Below are positions 6,739 through 50,522 of a stretch of DNA of 64,000 nt, in pieces. The notes beneath the pieces were generated by a model. The model made no database searches. It saw nothing but the letters and a program-made list of their open reading frames with translations, and was not told where the DNA came from. A program made the position numbers and the translations under genes. Each line of letters begins with the position of its first letter. The stretch's first letter is position 1. The DNA lies in assembly GCA_963837465.1 (NCBI GenBank), contig CAWINB010000001.1, forward strand, positions 565,646 through 629,645, given 5' to 3'. This DNA is from Candidatus Doudnabacteria bacterium. GTDB taxonomy: Bacteria; Patescibacteriota; Doudnabacteria; UBA920.

Positions 6739-8085
6739 ATGCAAGGATTAAGGACAAAACAGGCGGTCGGGCTGATAGACCAATCAGCCGCGCCGCCGCA
6801 AATAGCAGCAACGGTCAAATACTGCCTCTACAGCAGAAAAAGTTCCGAGGACGACGAACGCCAGGCGCTGTCCATAGACAGCCAAATTAAGGAGATGCGG
6901 GCCATGGCCCAGCGCGAGAATATGGAGGTGGTGGAGGTAAGAAAAGAAAGCCACTCTGCCAAAGCCTCGGGCATGAGGCCGGTCTACAATCAACTCTTAG
7001 TAGACATAAGAGCCGGAATGTTTAACGGAATTTTGACCTGGGCACCGGATAGGCTCTCCCGTAATGCCGGAGACTTGGGCGGGTTGGTAGATCTGATGGA
7101 TCAGGGCTACTTAAAAGAAATCCGTACCCATGGCCAAAGATTTACCAACTCACCAAACGAAAAATTCCTGCTGATGATTTTATGCTCTCAAGCCAAGCTA
7201 GAAAACGACAACCGCGGCATTAACGTAAAGCGCGGGCAGCGGGCAAGGCTGGATACTGGCCATCGGCCATGCCTGGCTCCCATAGGTTACCTGAACGAAA
7301 AAATCGGTTACCGCGGAGGGAGCAAAATCATAATAGACCCGGATAGGTCAAATTTTGTAAAACAGATGTTCGACCTAGTGGCCAACAAATTCTACACCGG
7401 CAGAGCTATATATAATTGGGCTAAAGAGGTGGGGTTTACCACCAGAAGCGGCAAGCCGGTGGCTTTAAGCAGTATTTTCCGGATGCTGGGGTCTACCTTC
7501 TACTACGGAGAGTTTGAGTGGCCGGTGGGCAGCGGGCAAATCTACCAAGGCAACTACCCAGCCTTGATAACCAAAGAGCTGTTTGAAAAGGCCAGAAAAA
7601 ATCTGATGACTGCCCCTAAGTCCAAGCCCGGAACTAAAGAGTTTAATTTTACCAAGCTGTTCTACTGCGGCTCCTGCCACAGCGGCATCACGGCCGAGGA
7701 CAAAATTAAATACCTTAAGGACGGGACGGTAAACAAATATATCTACTACCACTGCAGCCAATCCCAGGACTTGGACTGTCCCGAGCCATATATCAGGGAG
7801 GAAGACTTGCTGGAGCAGTTGATCAGTATCATAGATAAAATAGACCTGAATAAGTCCGGACTAAAGCAGCAGATAGACAGCGAGCTGGAACGGCTGCAAA
7901 GCTTTAGTAGCGGCATCTTAGGCAAGATGCTGACGGGCCAAGATCTGACCCAAAAGTTCAGCCCCAAAGAATATGCCAAGCATATTATCAGATACGGCAA
8001 CCATGATGAGAAACGCCAGCTGTTGCAATCCATCAACTCAAAAATTTACCTCAAAAACAGGAAGCTCAAGGTCGGTAAAAGATAA
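6739..8085 (+). CDS. large serine recombinase (integrase)
   Basis: N-terminal resolvase motif YSRKSSEDDERQALSIDSQ, recombinase domain, zinc-ribbon CGSCHSG; RBS aggaga upstream. Confidence 0.85.
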   Translation: MQGLRTKQAVGLIDQSAAPPQIAATVKYCLYSRKSSEDDERQALSIDSQIKEMRAMAQRENMEVVEVRKESHSAKASGMRPVYNQLLVDIRAGMFNGILTWAPDRLSRNAGDLGGLVDLMDQGYLKEIRTHGQRFTNSPNEKFLLMILCSQAKLENDNRGINVKRGQRARLDTGHRPCLAPIGYLNEKIGYRGGSKIIIDPDRSNFVKQMFDLVANKFYTGRAIYNWAKEVGFTTRSGKPVALSSIFRMLGSTFYYGEFEWPVGSGQIYQGNYPALITKELFEKARKNLMTAPKSKPGTKEFNFTKLFYCGSCHSGITAEDKIKYLKDGTVNKYIYYHCSQSQDLDCPEPYIREEDLLEQLISIIDKIDLNKSGLKQQIDSELERLQSFSSGILGKMLTGQDLTQKFSPKEYAKHIIRYGNHDEKRQLLQSINSKIYLKNRKLKVGKR

Positions 8086-8305: not shown

Positions 8306-8712
8306 TGGCTCGGGAGCTGGGATTCGAACCCAGGACCCATCGGTTACACTTAACCCTAATATTTCTACTAGGCGTGGACTATATCATCATCCCCGATGGA
8401 GGGACGCGAGGCGCTTGGGTCGATTTTATCAACCTACTCCCATAAAGGGATAGTCTCTGAACCTTCAATGGCTTTCGCCAAAGTTTGGCTGCTGATTGCC
8501 TTGTGGTATTTATATACCAGTTAGGTTTCCAGTCCGCCTTCGTCTGCCTGTAGCAGATTATAGCGGATCCGTGCTATAAAAACAAATTATAGTTACGGGC
8601 AATTCACCTCGTTTTTCAATCTCAATTACTTGAGAAAGCTGCTAATTTTCAACTTATTTTGAGACAAGTTGACGGTCTACAGCCGATTGCTCTACCGCTG
8701 AGCTACTCCCGA
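8306..8712 (-). tRNA. tRNA-Asn(GUU) interrupted by a group I intron
   Basis: Exons 8679-8712 (TCGGGAG TA GCTC AGCGGTA GAGC A ATCGG CTGT) and 8306-8346 (TAA CCGAT GGGTC CTGGG TTCGAAT CCCAG CTCCCGA G CCA) join to a canonical 76-nt cloverleaf, anticodon GTT, discriminator G. Confidence 0.7.
8347..8678 (-). ncRNA. group I intron in tRNA anticodon loop (between positions 35 and 36)
   Basis: Conserved R element GTTCAGAGACTA (8448-8463 rc) and S element GATGATATAGTCC (8373-8390 rc); internal guide TTAGCAGC pairs with ligated junction GCTGT/TAA with G.U at splice site; ends in G. Confidence 0.7.
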
Positions 8713-14618: not shown

Positions 14619-15539
14619 ATGAATAAAAAAATTGTCACAATTGGCCTCATCCAAAGCAAAGTATCAGCCGATGCTGCTGCTAACTTAATAAAGACGGAAG
14701 AAATGATACGGCAAGCCGCCCAAAAAGGCGCGCAGATTGTTTGTTTGCCTGAATTATTTCTCTCGCCATACTTTTGTCAGGGGCCAAAGGACAAGAACAA
14801 CTTCAAACTGGCGGAAACCGTACCGGGGCCAACCACCGCATTACTATCCAAGCTGGCAAAAGAATATCGCGTGGTTATTCTTTGCTCAATCTTTGAAAAA
14901 ACCAAAGAAAAAAAATATTATAACAGCTTAGTAGTTATCGGCACTCGCGGTCAGATAATAGGTACTTATCATAAAATGCACATCCCCTCGCTTCCAATAG
15001 ACTACTACTCGGAAAATTATTATTTCCAAAAAGGCGACACAAACTTTAAAGTGTTTAAAACGGAATACGGTACTATTGGGACTCTAATTTGCTATGACCA
15101 ATGGTTTCCTGAGGCAGCCCGCATTGCCGCCGCAAAAGGCGCCCAGATCCTTTTCTATCCCACCGCAATAGGCTGGCCGGAAGGCAACCCAAAATGGAAA
15201 AAGAAAGCCGAGCATGAAGCTTGGCAAATTACTCAAAGAAGCCACGGCATTGACAACAATCTTTTTATTGCCGCTGTGAACCGAATTGGGCTGGAAAAAA
15301 ATATCAGGTTTTGGGGGGGCTCATTTGTTAGCGACCCTTATGGCCGCGTGCTTGCTCAAGCATCGACCAACAAAGAGGAAATTTTAATAGTGCCTATAGA
15401 CTTTTCGGTTACCGAAAAAATGCGTGAAGAATGGCCTTTTTTGGATGAGCGAAGAATAAAAATGGAAAACATTGACACTTCAATAAAATCCAAAAATGTC
15501 GCGCGCTACAAAGATGAAAAGAAAGCTTTGGGAGAGTAA
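14619..15539 (+). CDS. aguB: N-carbamoylputrescine amidase (carbon-nitrogen hydrolase family)
   Basis: nitrilase-superfamily motifs CLPELF and LICYDQWFPE; adjacent to agmatine deiminase. Confidence 0.8.
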   Translation: MNKKIVTIGLIQSKVSADAAANLIKTEEMIRQAAQKGAQIVCLPELFLSPYFCQGPKDKNNFKLAETVPGPTTALLSKLAKEYRVVILCSIFEKTKEKKYYNSLVVIGTRGQIIGTYHKMHIPSLPIDYYSENYYFQKGDTNFKVFKTEYGTIGTLICYDQWFPEAARIAAAKGAQILFYPTAIGWPEGNPKWKKKAEHEAWQITQRSHGIDNNLFIAAVNRIGLEKNIRFWGGSFVSDPYGRVLAQASTNKEEILIVPIDFSVTEKMREEWPFLDERRIKMENIDTSIKSKNVARYKDEKKALGE

Positions 15540-15606
15540 ACACAGCGCGGTTGCTAGATTTATTGAGCCTTTACTAGAATCTCATAAATGAAACAGCCAA
15601 GGAAAA

Positions 15607-16662
15607 ATGCCCGACACGCCAAATAAATTAGGTTTTCATTTGCCCGCGGAATGGGAAAAACATTCCGCTGTTTGGCTTGCTTGGCCGCATGATAGAATCA
15701 GTTTTCCCAATTTGGAAGGAGTGGAAAATGCTGTTGTAAAAATTGTTGCCGCTGTTCATTTTCACGAACAGGTTGAATTGCTTGTTTTAAATGATTCAAT
15801 GCTTCAGCGTACTAGTGCAATAATGCAAAAAGCTGGCATGGATTTATCTAAAATTACTTTCCACATTGTTGACTATATGGACGCCTGGATGCGCGACTGC
15901 GGGCCTTGTTTTTTAAAAAACCCCCAAACAAACGAGCCGGCCTGGATAAAATGGACTTACAATGTCTACGGCGGAAAGTTCCCCAACCTCTTAAAAGACA
16001 ACGAGATAATGCTTAAACTTAGGCGGGAAATTAACGCCCGGATGTTTGAACCGGGAATAGTAATGGAAGGCGGCGCTTTTGACGTTAACGGCCAAGGCAC
16101 ATTAATTACAACCGAGCAATGTTTGCTAAACCCAAATCGCAACCCCAATTTAAACAAGGAAGAAATTGAAAAATATTTAAGAGACTACCTTGGCGTAAGT
16201 AAAATTATTTGGCTCAAAAAAGGTTTAGTGGGCGACCATACAGACGGGCATATAGATGACGTGGCAAAATTTGTTTCAGAGAACAAAATTGTCTGCTCTT
16301 GGGAAGCAGATGCAACCGATGGTAATTATAAAATTTTAGAGGAAAACTACCAGGCCTTGTTAAAAGCTGCTGATCAAAACGGTAAGCCCTTTGAAGTCAT
16401 AAAGCTCCCAATGGCGCATATGACTTACGCCGATGACAAGCCTTTTGAAAAAGGCGGCAAGGCACCCGCTTCCTATACCAATTTTTATATCGGGAACGAA
16501 ACTATTTTAGCGCCAACCTACAACGACCCGAACGACGCCAAAGCCCTGGAGATTTTACAATCCTGTTTTCCTGATAGAAAAGTTGCGCCCATTGACTGCT
16601 CCGATATTATTTACGGCGGCGGCGCGATTCATTGCATGACCCAGCAGCAGCCAGCCATATGA
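15607..16662 (+). CDS. aguA: agmatine deiminase
   Basis: PAEWEKHSAVWLAWPH N-terminus and C-terminal GGGAIHCMTQQ typical of agmatine deiminase. Confidence 0.9.
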   Translation: MPDTPNKLGFHLPAEWEKHSAVWLAWPHDRISFPNLEGVENAVVKIVAAVHFHEQVELLVLNDSMLQRTSAIMQKAGMDLSKITFHIVDYMDAWMRDCGPCFLKNPQTNEPAWIKWTYNVYGGKFPNLLKDNEIMLKLRREINARMFEPGIVMEGGAFDVNGQGTLITTEQCLLNPNRNPNLNKEEIEKYLRDYLGVSKIIWLKKGLVGDHTDGHIDDVAKFVSENKIVCSWEADATDGNYKILEENYQALLKAADQNGKPFEVIKLPMAHMTYADDKPFEKGGKAPASYTNFYIGNETILAPTYNDPNDAKALEILQSCFPDRKVAPIDCSDIIYGGGAIHCMTQQQPAI

Positions 16663-43581: not shown

Positions 43582-43589
43582 TTATATAG

Positions 43590-43704
43590 TGGGCAGCCAC
43601 CTACTTTTGCGCATACATGCGTATGACTATCATTGGCCCGCGCGCGTTTTACTTCTTAGTTCGGGATGGGGTAAGGTAGGACCGCGCTGGAAATGCCACC
43701 CAAG
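43590..43704 (-). rRNA. rrf: 5S rRNA
   Basis: rc reads GGGTGGCATTTCCAGCGCGGTCCTACCTTACCCCATCCCGAACTAAGAAGTAAAACGCGCGCGGGCC...GTAGGTGGCTGCCCA, colinear with bacterial 5S. Confidence 0.8.
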
Positions 43705-44071: not shown

Positions 44072-44091
44072 GTCACAAATTGCTAGTCAAT
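44072..44091. repeat. 3' arm of 20-bp perfect inverted repeat bracketing the 23S gene (pre-rRNA processing stem)
   Basis: gtcacaaattgctagtcaat is the exact reverse complement of 49575-49594. Confidence 0.6.
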
Positions 44092-44508
44092 TTTTCCGCC
44101 TTAGCTAAAGCTATGGCGGATGAAAAAGAATTAAAATTTTCGGTTGATTAGTACTGCTCGGCTGAACACATTACTGTGCTTACACCTGCAGCCTATAGAT
44201 AGCGTTTAGTTATTAGCGTTTAGCGTCCAGTATTGCTACTATTCGCTATTCACTAACCGCTATTCACTATTTTGTTACGGGGTAGTCTTCCCCGAACCTT
44301 TTGTCACCGAAGTGACAACGAAACCTAGTTTTGTAGACGGCTTCACGCTTATATGCCTTCAGCGCTTATCCTAACTAGACCTAGCTACCCCGCCATGCCC
44401 TGGACAGGACAACGGGTACACCAGAGGTCTATGCTTTTCGGTCCTCTCGTACTAAAAAAGCGACTACTCAAGTTTCGCACACCCACAGCAGATAAGGACC
44501 AACACTTT

Positions 44509-44830
44509 GTTACAAAAGTAACAAAAATTCCAAATTTCAAATTAAAAATTTCAAACTGGAAAACACTTTGCTACTTTGGCATAAATATTTCTATTATGCT
44601 CTGCATGTCGCCATGCAGTTCGGACTATATCTTCAATGCATTATCCCGGCGGTTCATCCGGTATCGTAAAAATTTAAGATTGATAATTACAAAGTCTGGC
44701 GTGTAGTCTCTACGGGTTCCCTGGGATTGTTATGTATTCCCAAAGCCTTCCCTCGGTATTGTCTCACGTTTTCTACCATGAGAGTTTCACCGATTTAGCC
44801 AAATTTACAGACAGCATGGTTATTCCTTTT
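44509..44830 (-). ncRNA. group I intron 3 at the L2593-equivalent site (after GTGAGACAGT), no ORF
   Basis: R element GTAGAGACTACAC and S element GAAGATATAGTCCGAAC; exon resumes ...GGTCCTTATCTGC. Confidence 0.65.
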
Positions 44831-44908
44831 ACTGTCTCACGACGTTTTGAACCCAGCTCGCGTACCACTTTAATATGCGAACAGCATAACCCTTGGGAGC
44901 TTCTACAC

Positions 44909-44947
<39 letters not shown>

Positions 44948-45491
44948 TCTCGTCGCTGTGGACGCTTGGAGAGGATCAGCCTGTTATCCCTAGAGTAACT
45001 TTTATCCGTTGGGCTTTGCGTCTTCCACTCGAACGCATCGGATCACTAACTTCCACTTTCGTGCCTGCGCGGGTCGCTGCCCTTGCAGTCAAGCAGGCTT
45101 ATGCGTTTGCACTACCGGCATGATTTCCATCCATACCTAGCCTACCTTAATAAACGCCTCCGTTACCATTTAGGAGGCAACCGCCCCAGTTAAACTACCC
45201 ACGAGCCACTGTCCCAAAGCAGGTTAAACTTTGGTTAGCAATTTCATCTTTACAGGGTGGTATTTCACCTGTTGCCTCCATGCCAGCTGGCGCCGGCACT
45301 TCAAAGGCTCCCACCTAGGCTAAACAATAAAAATAAAATTGCAATGACACGCTATAGTAAAGCTTCATAGGGTCTTTCCGTCTTGCTGCGGGTAGACGGC
45401 ATCTTTACCGCCATTGTAAATTCATCGGAATGTTCGTTAAGACAGTTCTCTACTCGTTATGCCATTCGTGCGGGTCGCAACTTACGCGACA

Positions 45492-45812
45492 CAAAATTGT
45501 TACTTTGCAAAACCACATCGGTTACTGATTGAGCTCTGTGGCGCGCTAATCTTTCGATTAGCATCTGCATGTCGCCATGCAGTTCAGACTATATCATCTC
45601 GCCTTGTTGGCGAGTTCCGCGTATAGTCGTTGAGGATCCGTTAAAAAAATTCAACGTTTCCTGCGGATTGTCCGGACTCCAACTCGTTTTGTTGGCATCA
45701 CTGAAGCATTTTTACTTATAAATAAGTAGCTTCAGATACTTCCGGGGTTCCCCGCATACAGCGGAATTTTCCATTCTTTAATAAATATTAAAGAATGGTC
45801 CCAGTCGTGTTT
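45492..45812 (-). ncRNA. group I intron 2 in domain IV (after GGTAGCGAAATTCCT), no ORF
   Basis: Q element AATCCGCAGG, S element GATGATATAGTCTGAAC; P7-P9 block CTGCATGGCGACATGCAG shared with intron 3. Confidence 0.65.
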
Positions 45813-45838
45813 AGGAATTTCGCTACCATAGGACAGTT

Positions 45839-46574
45839 CATTTATGTTAGCTTTATGTTTCCATAAAGATCAGACTATATCATTCCACCAGATTGATGGA
45901 TTCGGCGTTTAGTCGTTGAGGGTTTTTACTAAATGATTCTTTAAAATTTGTTAAATTATGTTTTCGTGTTCTTCCTTTTCCTTCATTTAAGCCTTCACGA
46001 AGTTTTACTATTTCTAGCAAGCCTTCGGAAGTTAAGTGTTGGTTTGCAAAAACTAGTTTTGCAATTTTAGAAAATAACGAATAGTTTCTTTTTTTAATTG
46101 CGGACAAGAAACCGAACCGGTCAAAGAAAGGGATTATTCTTTCTTTGAGTGCTGTATGATTTTGAACAATATATTGATGTACTCCATCTTTTCTATGGTC
46201 AATGCGACCACAGCCTAAATGATGCTTCAATAATGCAAGTACGGTAATATCTTTTTGAGAGACATTAAACGTTAGAATAACTTGCCATAATACTTTACTG
46301 TCAGTTCGTTTACGAAGGGAAACGTTAAAGCTTCCTTCTCCGTCTACAAAACCTGCAAAGTAATTTCCAAATTCAACAGGAATTTGTTTTAACCAATTTT
46401 GATCCATAAAGTTTCCTTTTGAATCGTTTAGTAAATCTTCCCTGCGGATTGACTGTATCTTGTAAATTTTTACTGTCATATTTCAGACGAGTATTACAAG
46501 TTTTAAGCACGTCGTTGTCCACGCGTGCACAGTTATTCCCGCAAATAGCCAAATTTTATAACTACAACATGTTC
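45839..46574 (-). mobile_element. group I intron 1 at the L1917-equivalent site (GTAACTAT|AACTGTCC) carrying a homing endonuclease gene
   Basis: Q element AATCCGCAGG at 46441-46455 rc, S-like GGAATGATATAGTCTGATC near 3' end; separated from intron 2 by a 26-nt exon (45813-45838). Confidence 0.7.
45880..46479 (-). CDS. LAGLIDADG homing endonuclease (intron-encoded)
   Basis: FAGFVDGEGSF motif; ORF lies entirely within intron 1. Confidence 0.85.
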   Translation of the reverse strand: MTVKIYKIQSIRREDLLNDSKGNFMDQNWLKQIPVEFGNYFAGFVDGEGSFNVSLRKRTDSKVLWQVILTFNVSQKDITVLALLKHHLGCGRIDHRKDGVHQYIVQNHTALKERIIPFFDRFGFLSAIKKRNYSLFSKIAKLVFANQHLTSEGLLEIVKLREGLNEGKGRTRKHNLTNFKESFSKNPQRLNAESINLVE

Positions 46575-46758
46575 ATAGTTACTGCCGGCGTTCATCAGGG
46601 CTTGGCCGAGCGGCTTGCGCCACCCGGTTTAACCTTCTGACACTGGCCAGGCATCAGCCCGTATACATCAGCTTGCGCTTTAGCACGGACCTAAGTTTTT
46701 GGTAAACAGTCGGAGGAGATCTTTCGCTGCGGGCCTAATTTATATGCTGGGTAATGAA

Positions 46759-47227
46759 GATATTTGAGACAGCAAATATCAAACTGTTTAAAAAATCAGG
46801 GTTAAGATTTTCCAAAGGAGGGTGTGTGGTACTCATCGCGGGTTCGAGCCGCAACAATTCAATCAAACGTGAGGTTAATCCGTCCGATTTATAACACACT
46901 TATCCCTCCTTTGGTACGGAGTTGACGGGTCCTAGGACGCCTAGTCGAGAAGGCAACAATGGTCTGTTGCCGACAAGACTATTTTTTCATCTACTCCGAA
47001 CTGGTGCATCGGATGGGAGTTGAACCCATACTGACACGGCTTAAGAGACCGCCGCTCTGCCCTTGAGCTACCGATGCGATTGTTTAAATCAAACAATCAA
47101 AACTTTCACCATAAAGAGTGATTACATTCTCACTTTGCCTCGCGGCTTATCTCTTTACTCAGAACGGGTATGCCTTTAACGGGCCGTATCTTTTCTAGGA
47201 GTCTTTATGGCAAACTCTAAAATTTTT
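46759..47227 (-). other. 469-nt insertion in 23S helix 63 region flanked by an 18-bp perfect inverted repeat
   Basis: arms tatatgctgggtaatgaa (46741-46758) and ttcattacccagcatata (47228-47245); flanking sequence matches E. coli 23S about 1700 and 1770. Confidence 0.5.
47002..47077 (-). tRNA. tRNA-Lys(CUU)-like cloverleaf embedded in the 23S helix-63 insertion
   Basis: GCATCGG TA GCTC AAGGGCA GAGC G GCGGT CTCTTAA GCCGT GTCAGT ATGGG TTCAACT CCCAT CCGATGC A CCA; perfect 7-bp acceptor and 5-bp T stems; anticodon stem has two G.U pairs. Confidence 0.5.
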
Positions 47228-47823
47228 TTCATTACCCAGCATATAAAAAGGTCAAGGTATATACCGAAGGTACACCTGCTTTTTTGCCGAGTTCCTTAAC
47301 GAACATTGTTCCGGACGCCTTGGGATTCTCTCCCCATCCACCTGTGTCGGTTTACGGTACGGACACTTTATAACGTGACTTCGACGCTTTTCTTGACACC
47401 TTGATTCACACTAATTCCCGTTGCCAGGTTTCTTCTTATTTTCGAGATTGTAACCGGACTTTACATCTCTCGCGAGGCAGTAAAGCCCGAAAAAGAAATT
47501 CCGGATTTGCCTGGAATTTCACCCTACGAATAAGACAACGCAAATAGTCAGATTACGCCAGTGTTATCATGATGCGTCCCGCCTAAGATAATTATAAAGT
47601 GGTTACGGAATATCAACCGTATTTTCCATCGGATGGACCCCTTGGGGCCCACTCTTAGGATCGACTAACCCAGGGACGACGATCGTTGCCCTGGAAACCT
47701 TGGATATTCGGCGAAGAGGATTCTCACCTCTATATATATTACTTATTCCAACATTCTTACTTGTACACTGTCCACGGCCGCTTACGCATACCGCTTCAAC
47801 CTGTGTACAACACTCCTCTACCA

Positions 47824-47938
47824 CTTGTGCGAAGCACAAGCATCCTTGATCCTTTATCATTTATCCTTGACCAACTGCGGAGCTGCAGCGGTAAAAGATA
47901 AAGGATTAAAGATAAAAGATACTTGTGCTTCGCACAAG
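47824..47938 (-). other. intervening sequence (IVS) in 23S helix 45
   Basis: 17-bp perfect stem cttgtgcgaagcacaag / cttgtgcttcgcacaag enclosing AT-rich hairpin at the canonical IVS site. Confidence 0.6.
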
Positions 47939-48020
47939 TCCACGTCTTCGGCACCTAGCTTAGCCCCTATATATTGTCGGCGCAGGATCGCTTGACCAGT
48001 GAGCTGTTACGCTTTCTTTA

Positions 48021-48057
<37 letters not shown>

Positions 48058-48829
48058 GGGCAATCCCACATCCTTTACACTATAGCTAGGATTTGGGGGC
48101 CTTAGACGGTGGTGTGGATTCTTCTCCATTTGTCTGGTGGAGCTTAGCCCCCACAGACTGACTGCCAGATTCTTGACCTTAAGAATTCAGAGTTTGGTTG
48201 GAGCCTACCGCTTGCGCAGCAGGTTTCCATTCAGTGCTTTACCTCTTAAGGGAACATCTGACGCTAGCCCTAAAGCTATTTCGAGGAGAACCAGCTATCA
48301 CCCGGTTCGATTGGAATTTCTCCCCTACGCACAGCTCATCCCCTATTTTTGCAGCAATAGTGGGTCCGGACCTCCCGTTACTTTTACATAACGTTCATCC
48401 TGGCCATGCGTAGCTCACGCGGGTTTCGGGTCTAACTCATGCGACATATAGGAATAGAATTATGAATATGGAATTATGAATTAGGAATACTGCGAATGCA
48501 GTCCCATAATTCTTAACTCATACTTCATAATTCTCATCCTATTACGGACTATTCATCCTCGCTTTCACTGCACTTTCGTCTTTGATAAGACTTAAGTAAG
48601 CCGCACAAGATTAACTCGTTGGATCATTCTTCAATAGGCACGCGGTTACTCACTGCTTCGCAGATGAGAATTTCAAATTAAAAATTTCAAATGTCAAATG
48701 AACTTGCAAGCTGCAGCCCTTTTGAAATTTGTAATTTGATATTTGACATTCCTAACTGCGAAGCAGTCAGAGCTTCCACTCCTTGTAAGTATACGGTTTC
48801 AGATACTATTTCATTCCCCTTCCGGGGTG

Positions 48830-48870
<41 letters not shown>

Positions 48871-49025
48871 ATATGAGTATTTAGCCTTGGATCTTAGTCG
48901 ACCCGATTTCCGACCAGATTTCTCGTGTCTGGTCGTACTCAAGTTTAAAGTTCAGGAAATTGCATGGTTTTTCGCGATACGGGACTATCACCCTCTTTGG
49001 TCCGCCGTTCCAGGCGTGTTCTGCT

Positions 49026-49235
49026 AAACAGCAAACATAATTCCCAGCCCCTTTACAGAGGGGCAATGACTTCCACTTATAACGCCATCTTAGCAACGAC
49101 TGTAATCTTTAATTCTCCGTCTTGCGACTTTGAAAACACTAAAATGGTTTGGGCTAATTATTTAGAGATTAGCGTTTAGCGAATTAGCGTTTAGTAACTA
49201 ACCGCTATTCACTATCCACTAATCACTAATAATAT
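49026..49235 (-). other. about 210-nt expansion/IVS in 23S helix 9 region
   Basis: about 60 nt in E. coli; contains tagcgtttagcg / taaccgctattcactat short repeats also present in 3'-terminal expansion 44190-44275. Confidence 0.5.
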
Positions 49236-49574
49236 ACTTCCGCGTTCGCTCGCCACTACTAACGGAATCTCTTTCGTACTCGCGTACGAATTGATTTATT
49301 TTCCACGTGCTACTGAGATGTTTCACTTCGCACGGTTCCCGCATATACCGCCCCACGGCGGCACAGCACGCGCTCTTCCAGCGCGTGGGTTTCCCCATTC
49401 GGACACCCCCGGATCAAAGCTTGTTTGCCAGCTCCCCGAGGCTTTTCGTCAGGCTACAACGTCCTTCATCGGCTCATATTACCTAGGCATCCACCGTATA
49501 CCCTTATCTATTTTAATTCTATCCGCGAATTGTCATCTGTCTTAAAAAAACAGACGCGCGATCCGCGGTTTATT

Positions 49575-49594
49575 ATTGACTAGCAATTTGTGAC
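49575..49594. repeat. 5' arm of the 20-bp inverted repeat bracketing 23S
   Basis: attgactagcaatttgtgac. Confidence 0.6.
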
Positions 49595-50522
49595 GACCAA
49601 ACTAGTTTAGAGTTGCGTGTTATTTGTAATGAGTGTCTCCACCCGAAACTTCCAACTCGCTACTCGCTACTGTTTGATCAACAAATTGTGATTTGGATAC
49701 AATGTTCAAAATCAGATCCTTAGACTTCGCTCAGGATAAAATCCTAAATTAAGTCCAAAGGATGATTTTACTTACAATTATTACAATGTCCATCTTATTT
49801 TATTAAGATGGATCTACCCAAGATTACCACTACTTGGTAAAGTGGTAATCTCTATTCAATTTTTAAATTGCTATCCGCTCGTCCTTCTAGGAATACATCC
49901 ATTTGTCTACTGCCCGGCAGCGTCTACGAGCCTGTATTCCCTAAGAAAGAAGGAATGCTGAGATCTGTGAGCAGTATATAAATAGATATATTGATTTTTG
50001 ATTTTGTGACATCCGCCTTCGCTAAAGCTACGGCGGATTATTCTCTGTAAAAATTGATTAGGGTGAATAAAAAAACCGCTTTCGCGGCTATGCTGGGCAC
50101 AATCTAAATTGGCCGTTTACATAAACCGCTTTTGGTTGATTAATAATGTTTGGATTACCATAGTTTTTTACCCTTTGTTTACCGTTTAAATATTTTATAC
50201 AAATTAGTCTAGACTGTCAAGGGAAAAAGCCAAAAATTGGAATAATATATTATGGCTTATTTATAAGGGTTTACTTTCCACTTAAACACAACCAATCCAC
50301 ACGATAACCACAGTCACGCTAGATGTGCCATCCCGGGCGAGCGCGTCCGAGACCCGGGATCCGGAACTTAGCGTTTTCCTCGGGTGGATTCCGGACATTT
50401 TTGGCCTACCTATCCTCTGGCAAAAATTCCGGAATGACGCAGGGTTTTATTTGACTCTCTCTCTCTGATTTGCTAACCTCTGGTTATCCTGTGCCAGAGG
50501 CGCGGGATTAAAGGAGGCCGCA

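Follow-up and report, generated by a model that had tools for sequence, protein, structure and literature searches.

The 23S rRNA gene analysed here contains a complete tRNA-Lys(CUU) in the orientation of the rRNA, within a 505-nt insert that stands in place of the apex of helix 63 (H63). We interpret the insert as being probably an intervening-sequence (IVS) type insertion in the H63 loop, with a genuine tRNA-Lys(CUU) as its cargo that is processed from the rRNA precursor. Excision of the tRNA from this precursor is most likely and would leave the 23S rRNA in pieces. The arrangement is seen in one metagenome-derived genome. Insertions in rRNA genes are a hallmark of CPR/Patescibacteria, and the gene content of the window (the whole 64-kb stretch of DNA that was analysed) is bacterial, including LigA, GlmS and a PPDK_N-type PEP-utilising enzyme, with the nearest proteins coming from Patescibacteria. 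The host, a bacterium with a tiny genome, belongs to the Patescibacteria and is placed near Ca. Doudnabacteria.

The original prediction had the impression that such an arrangement is undescribed for bacteria, and the literature is in line with this. We found no published precedent for a tRNA gene in a bacterial rRNA insert, and the nearest parallels are organellar. A survey of 968 CPR insertions in 23S (1,346 in 16S and 23S together) never mentions tRNA; the same survey left long insertions lacking both ORFs and introns uncharacterised, and tRNAs were not sought in it (PMC11270868).

The helix 63 insert and its 23S gene

The features discussed below are collected in Table 1. The 23S gene has a length of 5392 nt, as compared to the 2925 positions of the model. 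That the insertion lies in helix 63, as had been claimed, is borne out by the Rfam alignment, by aligning the gene to E. coli rrlB with MAFFT and by the spacing of the flanks. In the local alignment to the Rfam model (LSU_rRNA_bacteria), positions ~1757-1767 are swapped for 503 nt, and in the MAFFT alignment the additional letters fall between E. coli 1707 and 1741, within helix 63. The spacing from GGAACTCGGCAAA to GACTGTTTACCAAAAAC is 584 nt here, compared to 80-105 nt in the insert-free relatives.

The insert is closed by inverted-repeat arms of 27 nt each (46739-46765 and 47221-47247), with a complementarity of 89%. The repeat had been described as perfect over 18 bp; it is indeed there, but its perfect core is 20 bp. 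The closing duplex has a pairing probability of ~1.0 and a duplex energy of -33.7 kcal/mol, and the 18-mer of the inverted repeat occurs at only two sites in the window, namely the two arms, while 0.05 sites would be expected by chance. The duplex has the same length (20 bp) as the leader/trailer stem of the same pre-23S and is a candidate RNase III substrate.

The insert is strongly structured, with a fold over 538 nt (46725-47262) of -183.6 kcal/mol and z=-7.5 relative to shuffled sequences. Inside the closing stem, the predicted fold has seven branches, which makes for a multi-branch interior of ~465 nt. The 5' structured domain matches no Rfam family at E<=1. There is no group I intron in the insert, as RF00028 does not match anywhere in 46480-47560 at E<=1, and the same method finds three elsewhere in the window. 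The insert has no ORFs of 55 aa or more, no remnant of an IVP gene (tblastn with the IVP of the relative L126) and no tandem repeats. In a simple sigma-70/terminator consensus scan, no promoter- or terminator-like sites were found on the rRNA strand of the insert, and the best promoter-like site, with 11 of 12 matches, is located upstream of the 23S gene (50220-50192). As the tRNA apparently has no promoter of its own, it would be transcribed within the 23S-5S precursor.

The same 23S gene has hairpin insertions in H25 and H45; in the relatives, the H25 insertion is either missing or much shorter. An Rfam search gave no 16S rRNA within the window.

Table 1. Features of the 23S-5S region, the H63 insert and the tRNA, in window coordinates.
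Feature	Position	Strand	Basis or remarks
23S rRNA gene	44127-49518	minus	Rfam LSU_rRNA_bacteria (RF02541), 2008.9 bits, model 1-2925, full length
5S rRNA, downstream of 23S, same transcription unit	43588-43703	minus	Rfam RF00001, 67.3 bits
Leader arm, pre-23S processing stem	49575-49594	minus	20 bp, perfect pairing with 44072-44091
Trailer arm, pre-23S processing stem	44072-44091	minus	partner of 49575-49594
H25 insertion, 124-nt near-perfect hairpin	48649-48772	minus	classic IVS look; fold z=-6.7
H45 insertion, 113-nt near-perfect hairpin	47826-47938	minus	classic IVS look; fold z=-14.1
Three group I introns in 23S	E. coli sites 1917, ~1943, 2604		insertion map versus E. coli rrlB
505-nt insert in place of H63 apex	46741-47245	minus	E. 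coli ~1707-1741
5' arm (in RNA) of closing duplex, UUUAUAUGCUGGGUAAUGAA	47228-47247	minus	perfect over 20 bp
5' structured domain of insert, 110-nt branched hairpin	47105-47214	minus	predicted fold
21-nt hairpin GAUUGUUUGAUUUAAACAAUC, adjoining tRNA nucleotide +1; 5' leader at expected RNase P site	47078-47098	minus	branch of minimum-energy fold
tRNA-Lys(CUU), 76 nt, encoded CCA	47002-47077	minus (rRNA orientation)	ARAGORN tRNA-Lys(ctt); Rfam tRNA
First structured domain 3' of tRNA (trailer)	46917-46998	minus	predicted fold
Second 3' domain, 11-bp perfect closing stem CCAAAGGAGGG/CCCUCCUUUGG	46812-46914	minus	inverted repeat I4 and predicted fold
3' arm of closing duplex, UUCAUUACCCAGCAUAUAAA	46739-46758	minus	perfect over 20 bp

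The tRNA-Lys(CUU)

The textbook tRNA-Lys(CUU) of the original prediction is recovered by ARAGORN, by Rfam and by the fold. The covariance model for tRNA (RF00005) gives 60.4 bits, well above the gathering threshold of 29, with E=1e-10. At minimum energy, the 76 nt fold into a cloverleaf with a 7-bp acceptor stem, a GCUC/GAGC D stem, the anticodon loop CUCUUAA and a T stem AUGGG/CCCAU with the loop UUCAACU, followed by A73 and the encoded CCA. There are zero mismatches in the acceptor, D and T stems, while the anticodon stem (5 bp, with a 7-nt loop) contains two G-U pairs. The conserved positions U8, A14, G18-G19, U33, A37, T54-Psi55-C56, A58 and CCA are all present. In the 538-nt fold of the insert, the cloverleaf appears as a separate branch, with a pairing probability of 0.88 for the acceptor stem. 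Slightly unusual are the sizes of the D loop (7 nt) and of the variable loop (6 nt).

Lysine identity in the recognition by bacterial LysRS lies in U35 of the CUU anticodon and in the discriminator A73. Both of these expected features are found here, A73 being followed by CCA. The two other tRNA genes in the window encode CCA too, so that this style is native to the genome. In the genes of the window, AAG makes up 30% of the Lys codons, which means that there is work available for a CUU tRNA. The genome may have this tRNA in more than one copy, which would make it redundant; the search for copies covered the 64-kb window. It is a possible but doubtful scenario that this is the only tRNA-Lys(CUU) of the genome, and the cell would then have to break its 23S at helix 63 to get it. 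This would amount to bacterial tRNA punctuation within an rRNA, with the supply of a decoder coupled to ribosome synthesis, and would illustrate a one-step route from an IVS to a split rRNA of the organellar type, with a tRNA in between.

On the opposite strand, a degenerate T-arm had been proposed. The letters of this plus-strand motif, GCGGGTTCGAGCCGC at 46838-46852, are present as claimed, and we attribute them to chance, as the surrounding 81 nt fold with z=+0.47 relative to shuffled sequences and no second tRNA is matched at E<=1.

Relatives, database searches and alternative explanations

The comparison with related 23S genes shows that none of the ten distinct related H63 sequences contains the insert (set: L001, L003, L126, L129-L133; L134 duplicates L133). 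In nine relatives, H63 is a tRNA-free hairpin of ~16-44 nt. The remaining one, L126, has at the identical H63 site an unrelated 424-nt IVS that encodes a 23S_rRNA_IVP protein, and H63 is thus an IVS site in this clade. Among the relatives, the presence of the insert appears sporadic, as is typical of IVSs. The closest relative has a 23S that is ~91% identical.

Searches of viral, metagenome, phage and plasmid sequences gave no homologue of the insert, and what blastn returned from the phage and plasmid collections was at most generic tRNA similarity. Among viral contigs, the sole match to exact 18-25-mers of the insert covers 22 nt of one arm; it falls within a 497-aa phage ORF and was rejected as being most likely due to chance. 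For the plus-strand ORF of 46 aa in the insert there is no homologue, and the minus-strand ORF of 54 aa has one match, to a repeat protein with eight matched stretches, which was rejected. Scans of metagenome and viral sequences with a pattern of anticodon arm and T arm returned eight loci, six of them with a tRNA-Lys(CUU) called by ARAGORN (five inside dense tRNA arrays) and two without a called tRNA. These metagenome and viral tRNA-Lys(CUU) genes are at most 89% identical to the tRNA of the window over 38 nt, and their flanks are dissimilar. The genome contigs were also scanned with the degenerate T-arm/acceptor pattern GGGTTCRANTCCCNNNCGATGCA, which gave at least 120 loci. The matches listed are mostly archaeal, with tRNAs that are largely Gly(UCC)-like by a crude reading of the anticodon, and are uninformative. 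An archaeal origin of the tRNA was rejected, since among the matches listed the best global identity is ~76% (58/76), for a tRNA that is not Lys(CUU); the best tRNA-Lys(CUU) among them is identical to that of the window at 57/76 positions.

A number of other explanations of the insert were considered. The insert could be a neutral hitchhiker, that is, DNA bearing a tRNA-Lys, from the own genome or foreign, that was put into a tolerant loop after the divergence from the sampled relatives. The tRNA would in that case be redundant and would decay with time, being tolerated whether excised or not. This is consistent with the absence of the insert from all ten relatives, including the one with the closest 23S, with the 430 non-tRNA nt that match nothing known (Rfam, blastn), and with the fact that H63 takes unrelated inserts both in the clade (L126) and in E. 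coli. Nothing is conserved that would argue for selection either: the insert occurs in this genome alone, which leaves neither covariation nor signs of purifying selection to be seen for the tRNA or for the arrangement. However, the tRNA shows no decay, its acceptor, D and T stems, conserved positions and CCA being intact. Moreover, even if redundant, the tRNA would be transcribed very highly with the rRNA and remain a substrate of RNase P, with the same processing consequences. We consider the hitchhiker unlikely. The case that the 505 nt are kept in the mature 23S as a counterpart of ES27L, with the tRNA module in a structural or protein-docking role and not as a decoder, is quite improbable. 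The module is joined through both its 5' and 3' ends, with leader and trailer, which is the topology of a pre-tRNA and makes it an RNase P substrate, and it has kept its anticodon loop, discriminator base and CCA, for which a scaffold has no need. The closing duplex resembles other RNase III stems of this precursor, and no relative has the insert, unlike what is seen for a functional expansion segment. The option of a retained segment draws on the fold of the insert, which is far above shuffled sequences, on the identity of H63 with the insertion-tolerant ES27 site, and on engineered tRNA-like tags in 23S helices, which are kept and have been seen by cryo-EM (PMC2441807).

The original prediction had also raised the possibility of a mobile element that captured a tRNA. 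This is not supported: the window and the relatives contain no second copy, the viral, metagenome, phage and plasmid sequences no homologue, and the insert has no transposase, homing endonuclease or visible target-site duplication. In its most specific form, the element would be non-autonomous and MITE-like, with terminal inverted repeats that extend H63 by chance. Its 27-nt terminal inverted repeats fit such a description, and transposase-bearing inserts with inverted repeats do occur in the 23S of other bacteria (PMC2672173). On the other hand, the 64-kb window and the relatives' loci contain neither a further copy nor a single arm. There is no transposase, the junctions show no evident direct repeat (the ancestral loop sequence being uncertain), and the viral contigs, phage and plasmid records contain no homologue beyond the chance match to one arm. 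Such an element is thus very improbable. Finally, rRNA regions of metagenome-assembled genomes are error-prone and the locus is on one contig only in the protein database, which raises the question of a chimeric or mis-joined rRNA region. Unlike in a random mis-join, both junctions are in one helix, and the H63 stem is continued by the inserted ends, which pair perfectly over 20 bp. In addition, compared to the closest relative, the 23S portions before and after the insert have similar identities (90.3% and 93.3%), the gene order on either side of the rRNA genes is as in the relatives, and the source contig has a length of 699,532 bp. An assembly artefact is therefore extremely improbable.

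Proposed processing and comparison with known systems

We now return to the IVS-type insertion with a tRNA-Lys(CUU) as cargo. The original prediction had proposed an excised IVS that releases a tRNA. The anatomy fits this proposal, with the closing duplex, the H25 and H45 hairpins, the IVS of L126 and the sporadic presence, while excision and release, like aminoacylation and a benefit to the cell, are what we infer from it. After transcription, RNase III would cut the 20-bp closing duplex, as in classical IVSs and in this precursor's leader/trailer stem. RNase P, independently or later, would cut at tRNA nucleotide +1 (47077), and the 3' trailer would be trimmed to the encoded CCA (47002). The expected products are a free tRNA-Lys(CUU), about one per ribosome as for spacer tRNAs, and a 23S that is broken at H63, the halves of which would be kept in the subunit by non-covalent contacts. 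Further excision of the H25 and H45 hairpins would yield a mature 23S in four pieces, with sizes of ~0.75, 0.7, 0.6 and 1.2 kb. The gene for RNase III, rnc, is retained in at least 90% of CPR genomes (PMC12641178), and H63 of the E. coli 23S tolerates insertions (PMC2441807).

It should be pointed out that some features speak against this scenario. The interior of the insert is no simple hairpin and has no IVP ORF, nor does it have any recognisable function. The leader is non-ideal, as a stable hairpin adjoins the site of RNase P cleavage and the C at position -1 is paired, and the predicted ~240-nt structured 3' trailer would call for an endonuclease.

If the tRNA is functional, it would join homing-endonuclease introns and IVP-type IVSs as a third kind of cargo in bacterial rRNA insertions. 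The processing of a tRNA by RNase P would then be linked to the fragmentation of rRNA in a bacterium. The present case would be a living intermediate for the origin of the split, tRNA-punctuated rRNA genes of organelles. Annotators and gene callers that mask rRNA would miss such a tRNA and wrongly call it absent from a reduced genome. In a more exotic variant of the scenario with a single tRNA-Lys(CUU) in the genome, the tRNA could remain on the large subunit as a structural part. Mammalian mitoribosomes hold a mitochondrial tRNA in this way.

Bacterial 23S IVSs, such as those in H25 and H45 of Salmonella, are excised by RNase III without religation, and some of them carry a 23S_rRNA_IVP (PF05635) ORF; the classical sites are H25, H45 and also H9. 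The present insert is like these in that it replaces the tip of a surface hairpin, has a long inverted-repeat duplex, is sporadic and falls within the known size range. The same 23S has H25 and H45 hairpins, and L126 has an IVP-encoding IVS at the same H63 site. It differs in its site, H63, in the ~465-nt multi-branch interior and in the tRNA cargo, and its excision is a predicted one.

With the spacer and distal tRNAs of rRNA operons (16S-tRNA-23S-5S, for example tRNA-Glu of E. coli rrnB), the tRNA shares co-transcription, the release by RNase III and RNase P (predicted here) and an output tied to that of ribosomes. However, those tRNAs are located between rRNA genes, while the present one is inside the 23S, and its release must therefore break the rRNA. 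As the operon lacks a 16S, there is no 16S-23S spacer.

In Tetrahymena pyriformis mitochondria, the gene for the large-subunit (LSU) rRNA is discontinuous, with tRNA genes lying between its pieces (Heinonen et al. 1987, cited in PMC2996981). The likeness is that a tRNA gene stands between two LSU coding pieces and that the organellar pieces work unjoined; the difference is that these are mitochondrial and rearranged, with the break elsewhere and no helix-restoring duplex, while here the pieces are colinear and the genome is bacterial.

The solvent-side helix concerned is the same as that of ES27L and of the E. coli H63 site, where extra RNA is tolerated experimentally (PMC2441807). Unlike the present insert, ES27L is retained, conserved within lineages and tRNA-free. 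The engineered tRNA-like tags in the E. coli 23S likewise place a tRNA-shaped module on a 23S helix and are compatible with ribosome assembly (PMC2441807). While those tags are artificial and made to stay, the module described here is natural, with the topology of a pre-tRNA and the full set of decoding features.

[quoted passage not shown] The 23S gene is 5392 nt long, compared to the 2925 positions of the Rfam model. The extra sequence was listed by alignment against E. coli rrlB; besides three group I introns, it consists of ca 110 nt at H25, ca 91 nt at H45, several smaller insertions, and ca 480 nt distributed across E. coli positions 1707-1741, that is, helix 63 (H63). When the region was aligned locally to the covariance model, 503 nt stood in place of model positions ~1757-1767. 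Since both alignments put the extra nucleotides there, the original prediction was correct in placing the insertion in H63.

Features of the 23S-5S unit (window coordinates; introns by E. coli site)
Feature	Position	Strand	Length	Basis or remark
23S rRNA, full-length bacterial	44127-49518	-		Rfam, 2008.9 bits
5S rRNA	43588-43703	-		downstream of 23S; Rfam
H63 insert	46741-47245	-	505 nt	closed by inverted repeats 46739-46765 / 47221-47247
tRNA-Lys(CUU)	47002-47077	-, same as rRNA		ARAGORN; Rfam
Group I intron	site 1917		736 nt	LAGLIDADG ORF at 45880-46479 (-)
Group I intron	site ~1943		321 nt	rrlB alignment
Group I intron	site 2604		328 nt	rrlB alignment
H25 insertion, near-perfect hairpin	48649-48772	-	124 nt	z=-6.7 vs shuffled
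H45 insertion, near-perfect hairpin	47826-47938	-	113 nt	z=-14.1 vs shuffled

Long near-perfect hairpins at H25 and H45 have both the classical look and the classical sites of intervening sequences (IVSs) excised by RNase III, and from them the 23S rRNA is predicted to be fragmented at several points. In most relatives these two insertions are missing or far shorter. The 23S gene is bracketed by a leader/trailer duplex of 20 perfect base pairs (49575-49594 / 44072-44091), which the duplex closing the H63 insert matches in kind and length.

Other Patescibacteria 23S genes contain homologues of the LAGLIDADG homing endonuclease with 89-93% identity, while the rRNA of those genes is only ~87-91% identical, which hints that the site-1917 intron may be mobile between lineages. 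A simple consensus scan placed the best promoter-like site at 50220-50192 (11/12 matches), upstream of the 23S gene. About 700 nt (49519-50220, minus strand) separate it from the 23S 5' end, with a terminator-like hairpin at 50089-50074 in between.

The helix 63 insert and its tRNA

The inverted-repeat arms of the insert are 27 nt long and 89% complementary, and their perfect core, originally put at 18 bp, was measured at 20 bp (46739-46758 / 47228-47247). The core 18-mer occurs in the window only at the two stem arms. For the closing duplex, the energy is -33.7 kcal/mol and the pairing probability ~1.0; the 538 nt at 46725-47262 fold at -183.6 kcal/mol (z=-7.5 vs shuffled sequence) into a predicted structure of seven branches enclosed by the closing stem. 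The insert contains no ORF of at least 55 aa, no tandem repeats, no Rfam family other than tRNA at E<=1, and, on the rRNA strand, no promoter-like or terminator-like site in the consensus scan.

The proposed tRNA-Lys(CUU) cloverleaf is confirmed: ARAGORN calls the gene, its Rfam score of 60.4 bits exceeds the threshold of 29, and the minimum-energy fold of the tRNA taken alone is a cloverleaf. It has U8, A14, G18-G19, U33, A37, a TTCAA T loop, A73 and an encoded CCA, the last also present in the window's two other tRNA genes. AAG makes up 30% of the Lys codons in the window's genes, and the tRNA therefore has codons to read. The T-arm-like motif noted on the plus strand (46838-46852), on the other hand, is not a tRNA remnant, as the surrounding fold has z=+0.47 vs shuffled sequence; Rfam gave no second tRNA match around the insert at E<=1.

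Elsewhere in the window, a tRNA-Asn(GUU) gene (8310-8710, minus strand) has its anticodon loop interrupted by a group I intron (RF00028, 53.3 bits, 8355-8661). ARAGORN gave no call for this split gene, which fits a class reported for Patescibacteria (PMC13011429) and is adjoined by a serine recombinase ORF (6739-8085, plus strand). Four metagenome contigs (L136, L137, L138 and L142) carry dense arrays of 4-9 tRNA genes per ~1-5 kb, including tRNA-Lys(CUU) genes with the anticodon arm of the window tRNA.

Helix 63 in relatives

The proteins of the window are ordinary bacterial ones (NAD-dependent DNA ligase, GlmS, a PPDK_N-type PEP-utilising enzyme). The nearest named relatives of the ligase are Patescibacteria, several labelled Ca. 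Doudnabacteria, with at most 79% identity to any of them; the contig from which the window comes measures 699,532 bp. The gene order LigA ... 23S-5S ... TrmB-GlmS is conserved among relatives, and contigs with ligase homologues therefore yielded their 23S genes, four in number. Five more loci came from contigs with close homologues of the intron LAGLIDADG protein; two of these, L133 and L134, have identical H63 sequences. L133 has the closest 23S, ~91% identical across shared parts (90.3% 5' and 93.3% 3' of the insert).

None of the relatives has the tRNA-bearing insert. In nine, H63 is a plain hairpin of ~16-44 nt without a tRNA. The tenth, L126 (LigA 73% identical), has a 424-nt insertion at the identical site (15190-15640); long inverted repeats of the GGTTAGAGG type close it, and it encodes a 114-aa 23S_rRNA_IVP (PF05635), a protein of some IVSs. 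This is a textbook protein-coding IVS, and it has no sequence in common with the window insert. To our knowledge, H63 is not among the classical IVS sites. Given the nine short hairpins and the unrelated IVS, H63 gains and loses IVS-type elements in this clade. Judging from the sequences compared, the tRNA-bearing insert is specific to the window's lineage; it is known from a single metagenome-derived genome, without an orthologous copy.

Searches by blastn in limited collections and by exact-match patterns, which diverged homologues could escape, gave no homologue of the insert. A 22-nt exact match to one duplex arm in an IMG/VR viral contig (L143, 8756-8777, inside a 497-aa ORF) was rejected as most likely due to chance, because the second arm and any further similarity are absent.

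Proposed processing, alternatives and known systems

The tRNA lies in sense orientation ~2.4 kb into the 23S gene and seems to lack its own promoter, and for these reasons it would be transcribed within the 23S-5S precursor. RNase III, whose gene rnc is kept by 90% or more of CPR genomes (PMC12641178), would cleave the closing duplex, RNase P would cleave at the tRNA +1 (47077), and the structured 3' trailer would be trimmed off as far as the CCA (47002). The products would be free tRNA-Lys(CUU), with an output matched to ribosome production, and a 23S rRNA broken at H63 or, were the H25 and H45 hairpins excised as well, in four pieces. Each of these steps is modelled on the anatomy of the locus, known IVSs and the spacer tRNAs of rRNA operons, and we regard this reading as the probable one, with moderate confidence.

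The tRNA could instead be a neutral, redundant hitchhiker within a lineage-specific insertion. This would fit the absence of conservation, but the tRNA has no signs of decay, and the same processing would be expected for a redundant copy anyway; we consider it unlikely, if the most serious of the alternatives. Alternatively, the insert may be an expansion segment that stays in the 23S rRNA and contains a tRNA-shaped module. The site allows this, since E. coli 23S tolerates insertions at H63, where eukaryotes have ES27 (PMC2441807), and so does an engineered precedent, the tRNA-like tags that the same paper reports as retained in 23S helices. However, the topology is that of a pre-tRNA, the set of decoding features is complete, and the relatives lack the insert, which makes this option improbable.

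A MITE-like element would account for the inverted repeats, and a mobile element with a captured tRNA had been suggested originally. This is not supported: there are no other copies in the 64-kb window or the relatives' loci, no transposase, no clear target-site duplication, and no homologues in viral, phage and plasmid collections, and we rate it slightly lower still. Misassembly is very unlikely, because both junctions lie in one helix that the inserted ends extend perfectly, and synteny and flank identity are normal.

The original prediction knew of no description of a tRNA module within an rRNA expansion for bacteria. This agrees with our full-text literature searches, which gave no bacterial example of a tRNA gene inside 23S. 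A survey of 968 CPR 23S insertions nowhere mentions a tRNA and leaves insertions of 500-1000 nt without ORFs or introns uncharacterised (PMC11270868). The natural cases found of a tRNA gene between two large-subunit rRNA pieces are organellar only, such as that of Tetrahymena mitochondria (cited in PMC2996981). Although its interior is neither a simple hairpin nor an IVP ORF, the insert shares with bacterial IVSs its location in a surface hairpin, its closing duplex and its sporadic distribution, and we liken it to a bacterial IVS plus a spacer tRNA, whose excision we infer.
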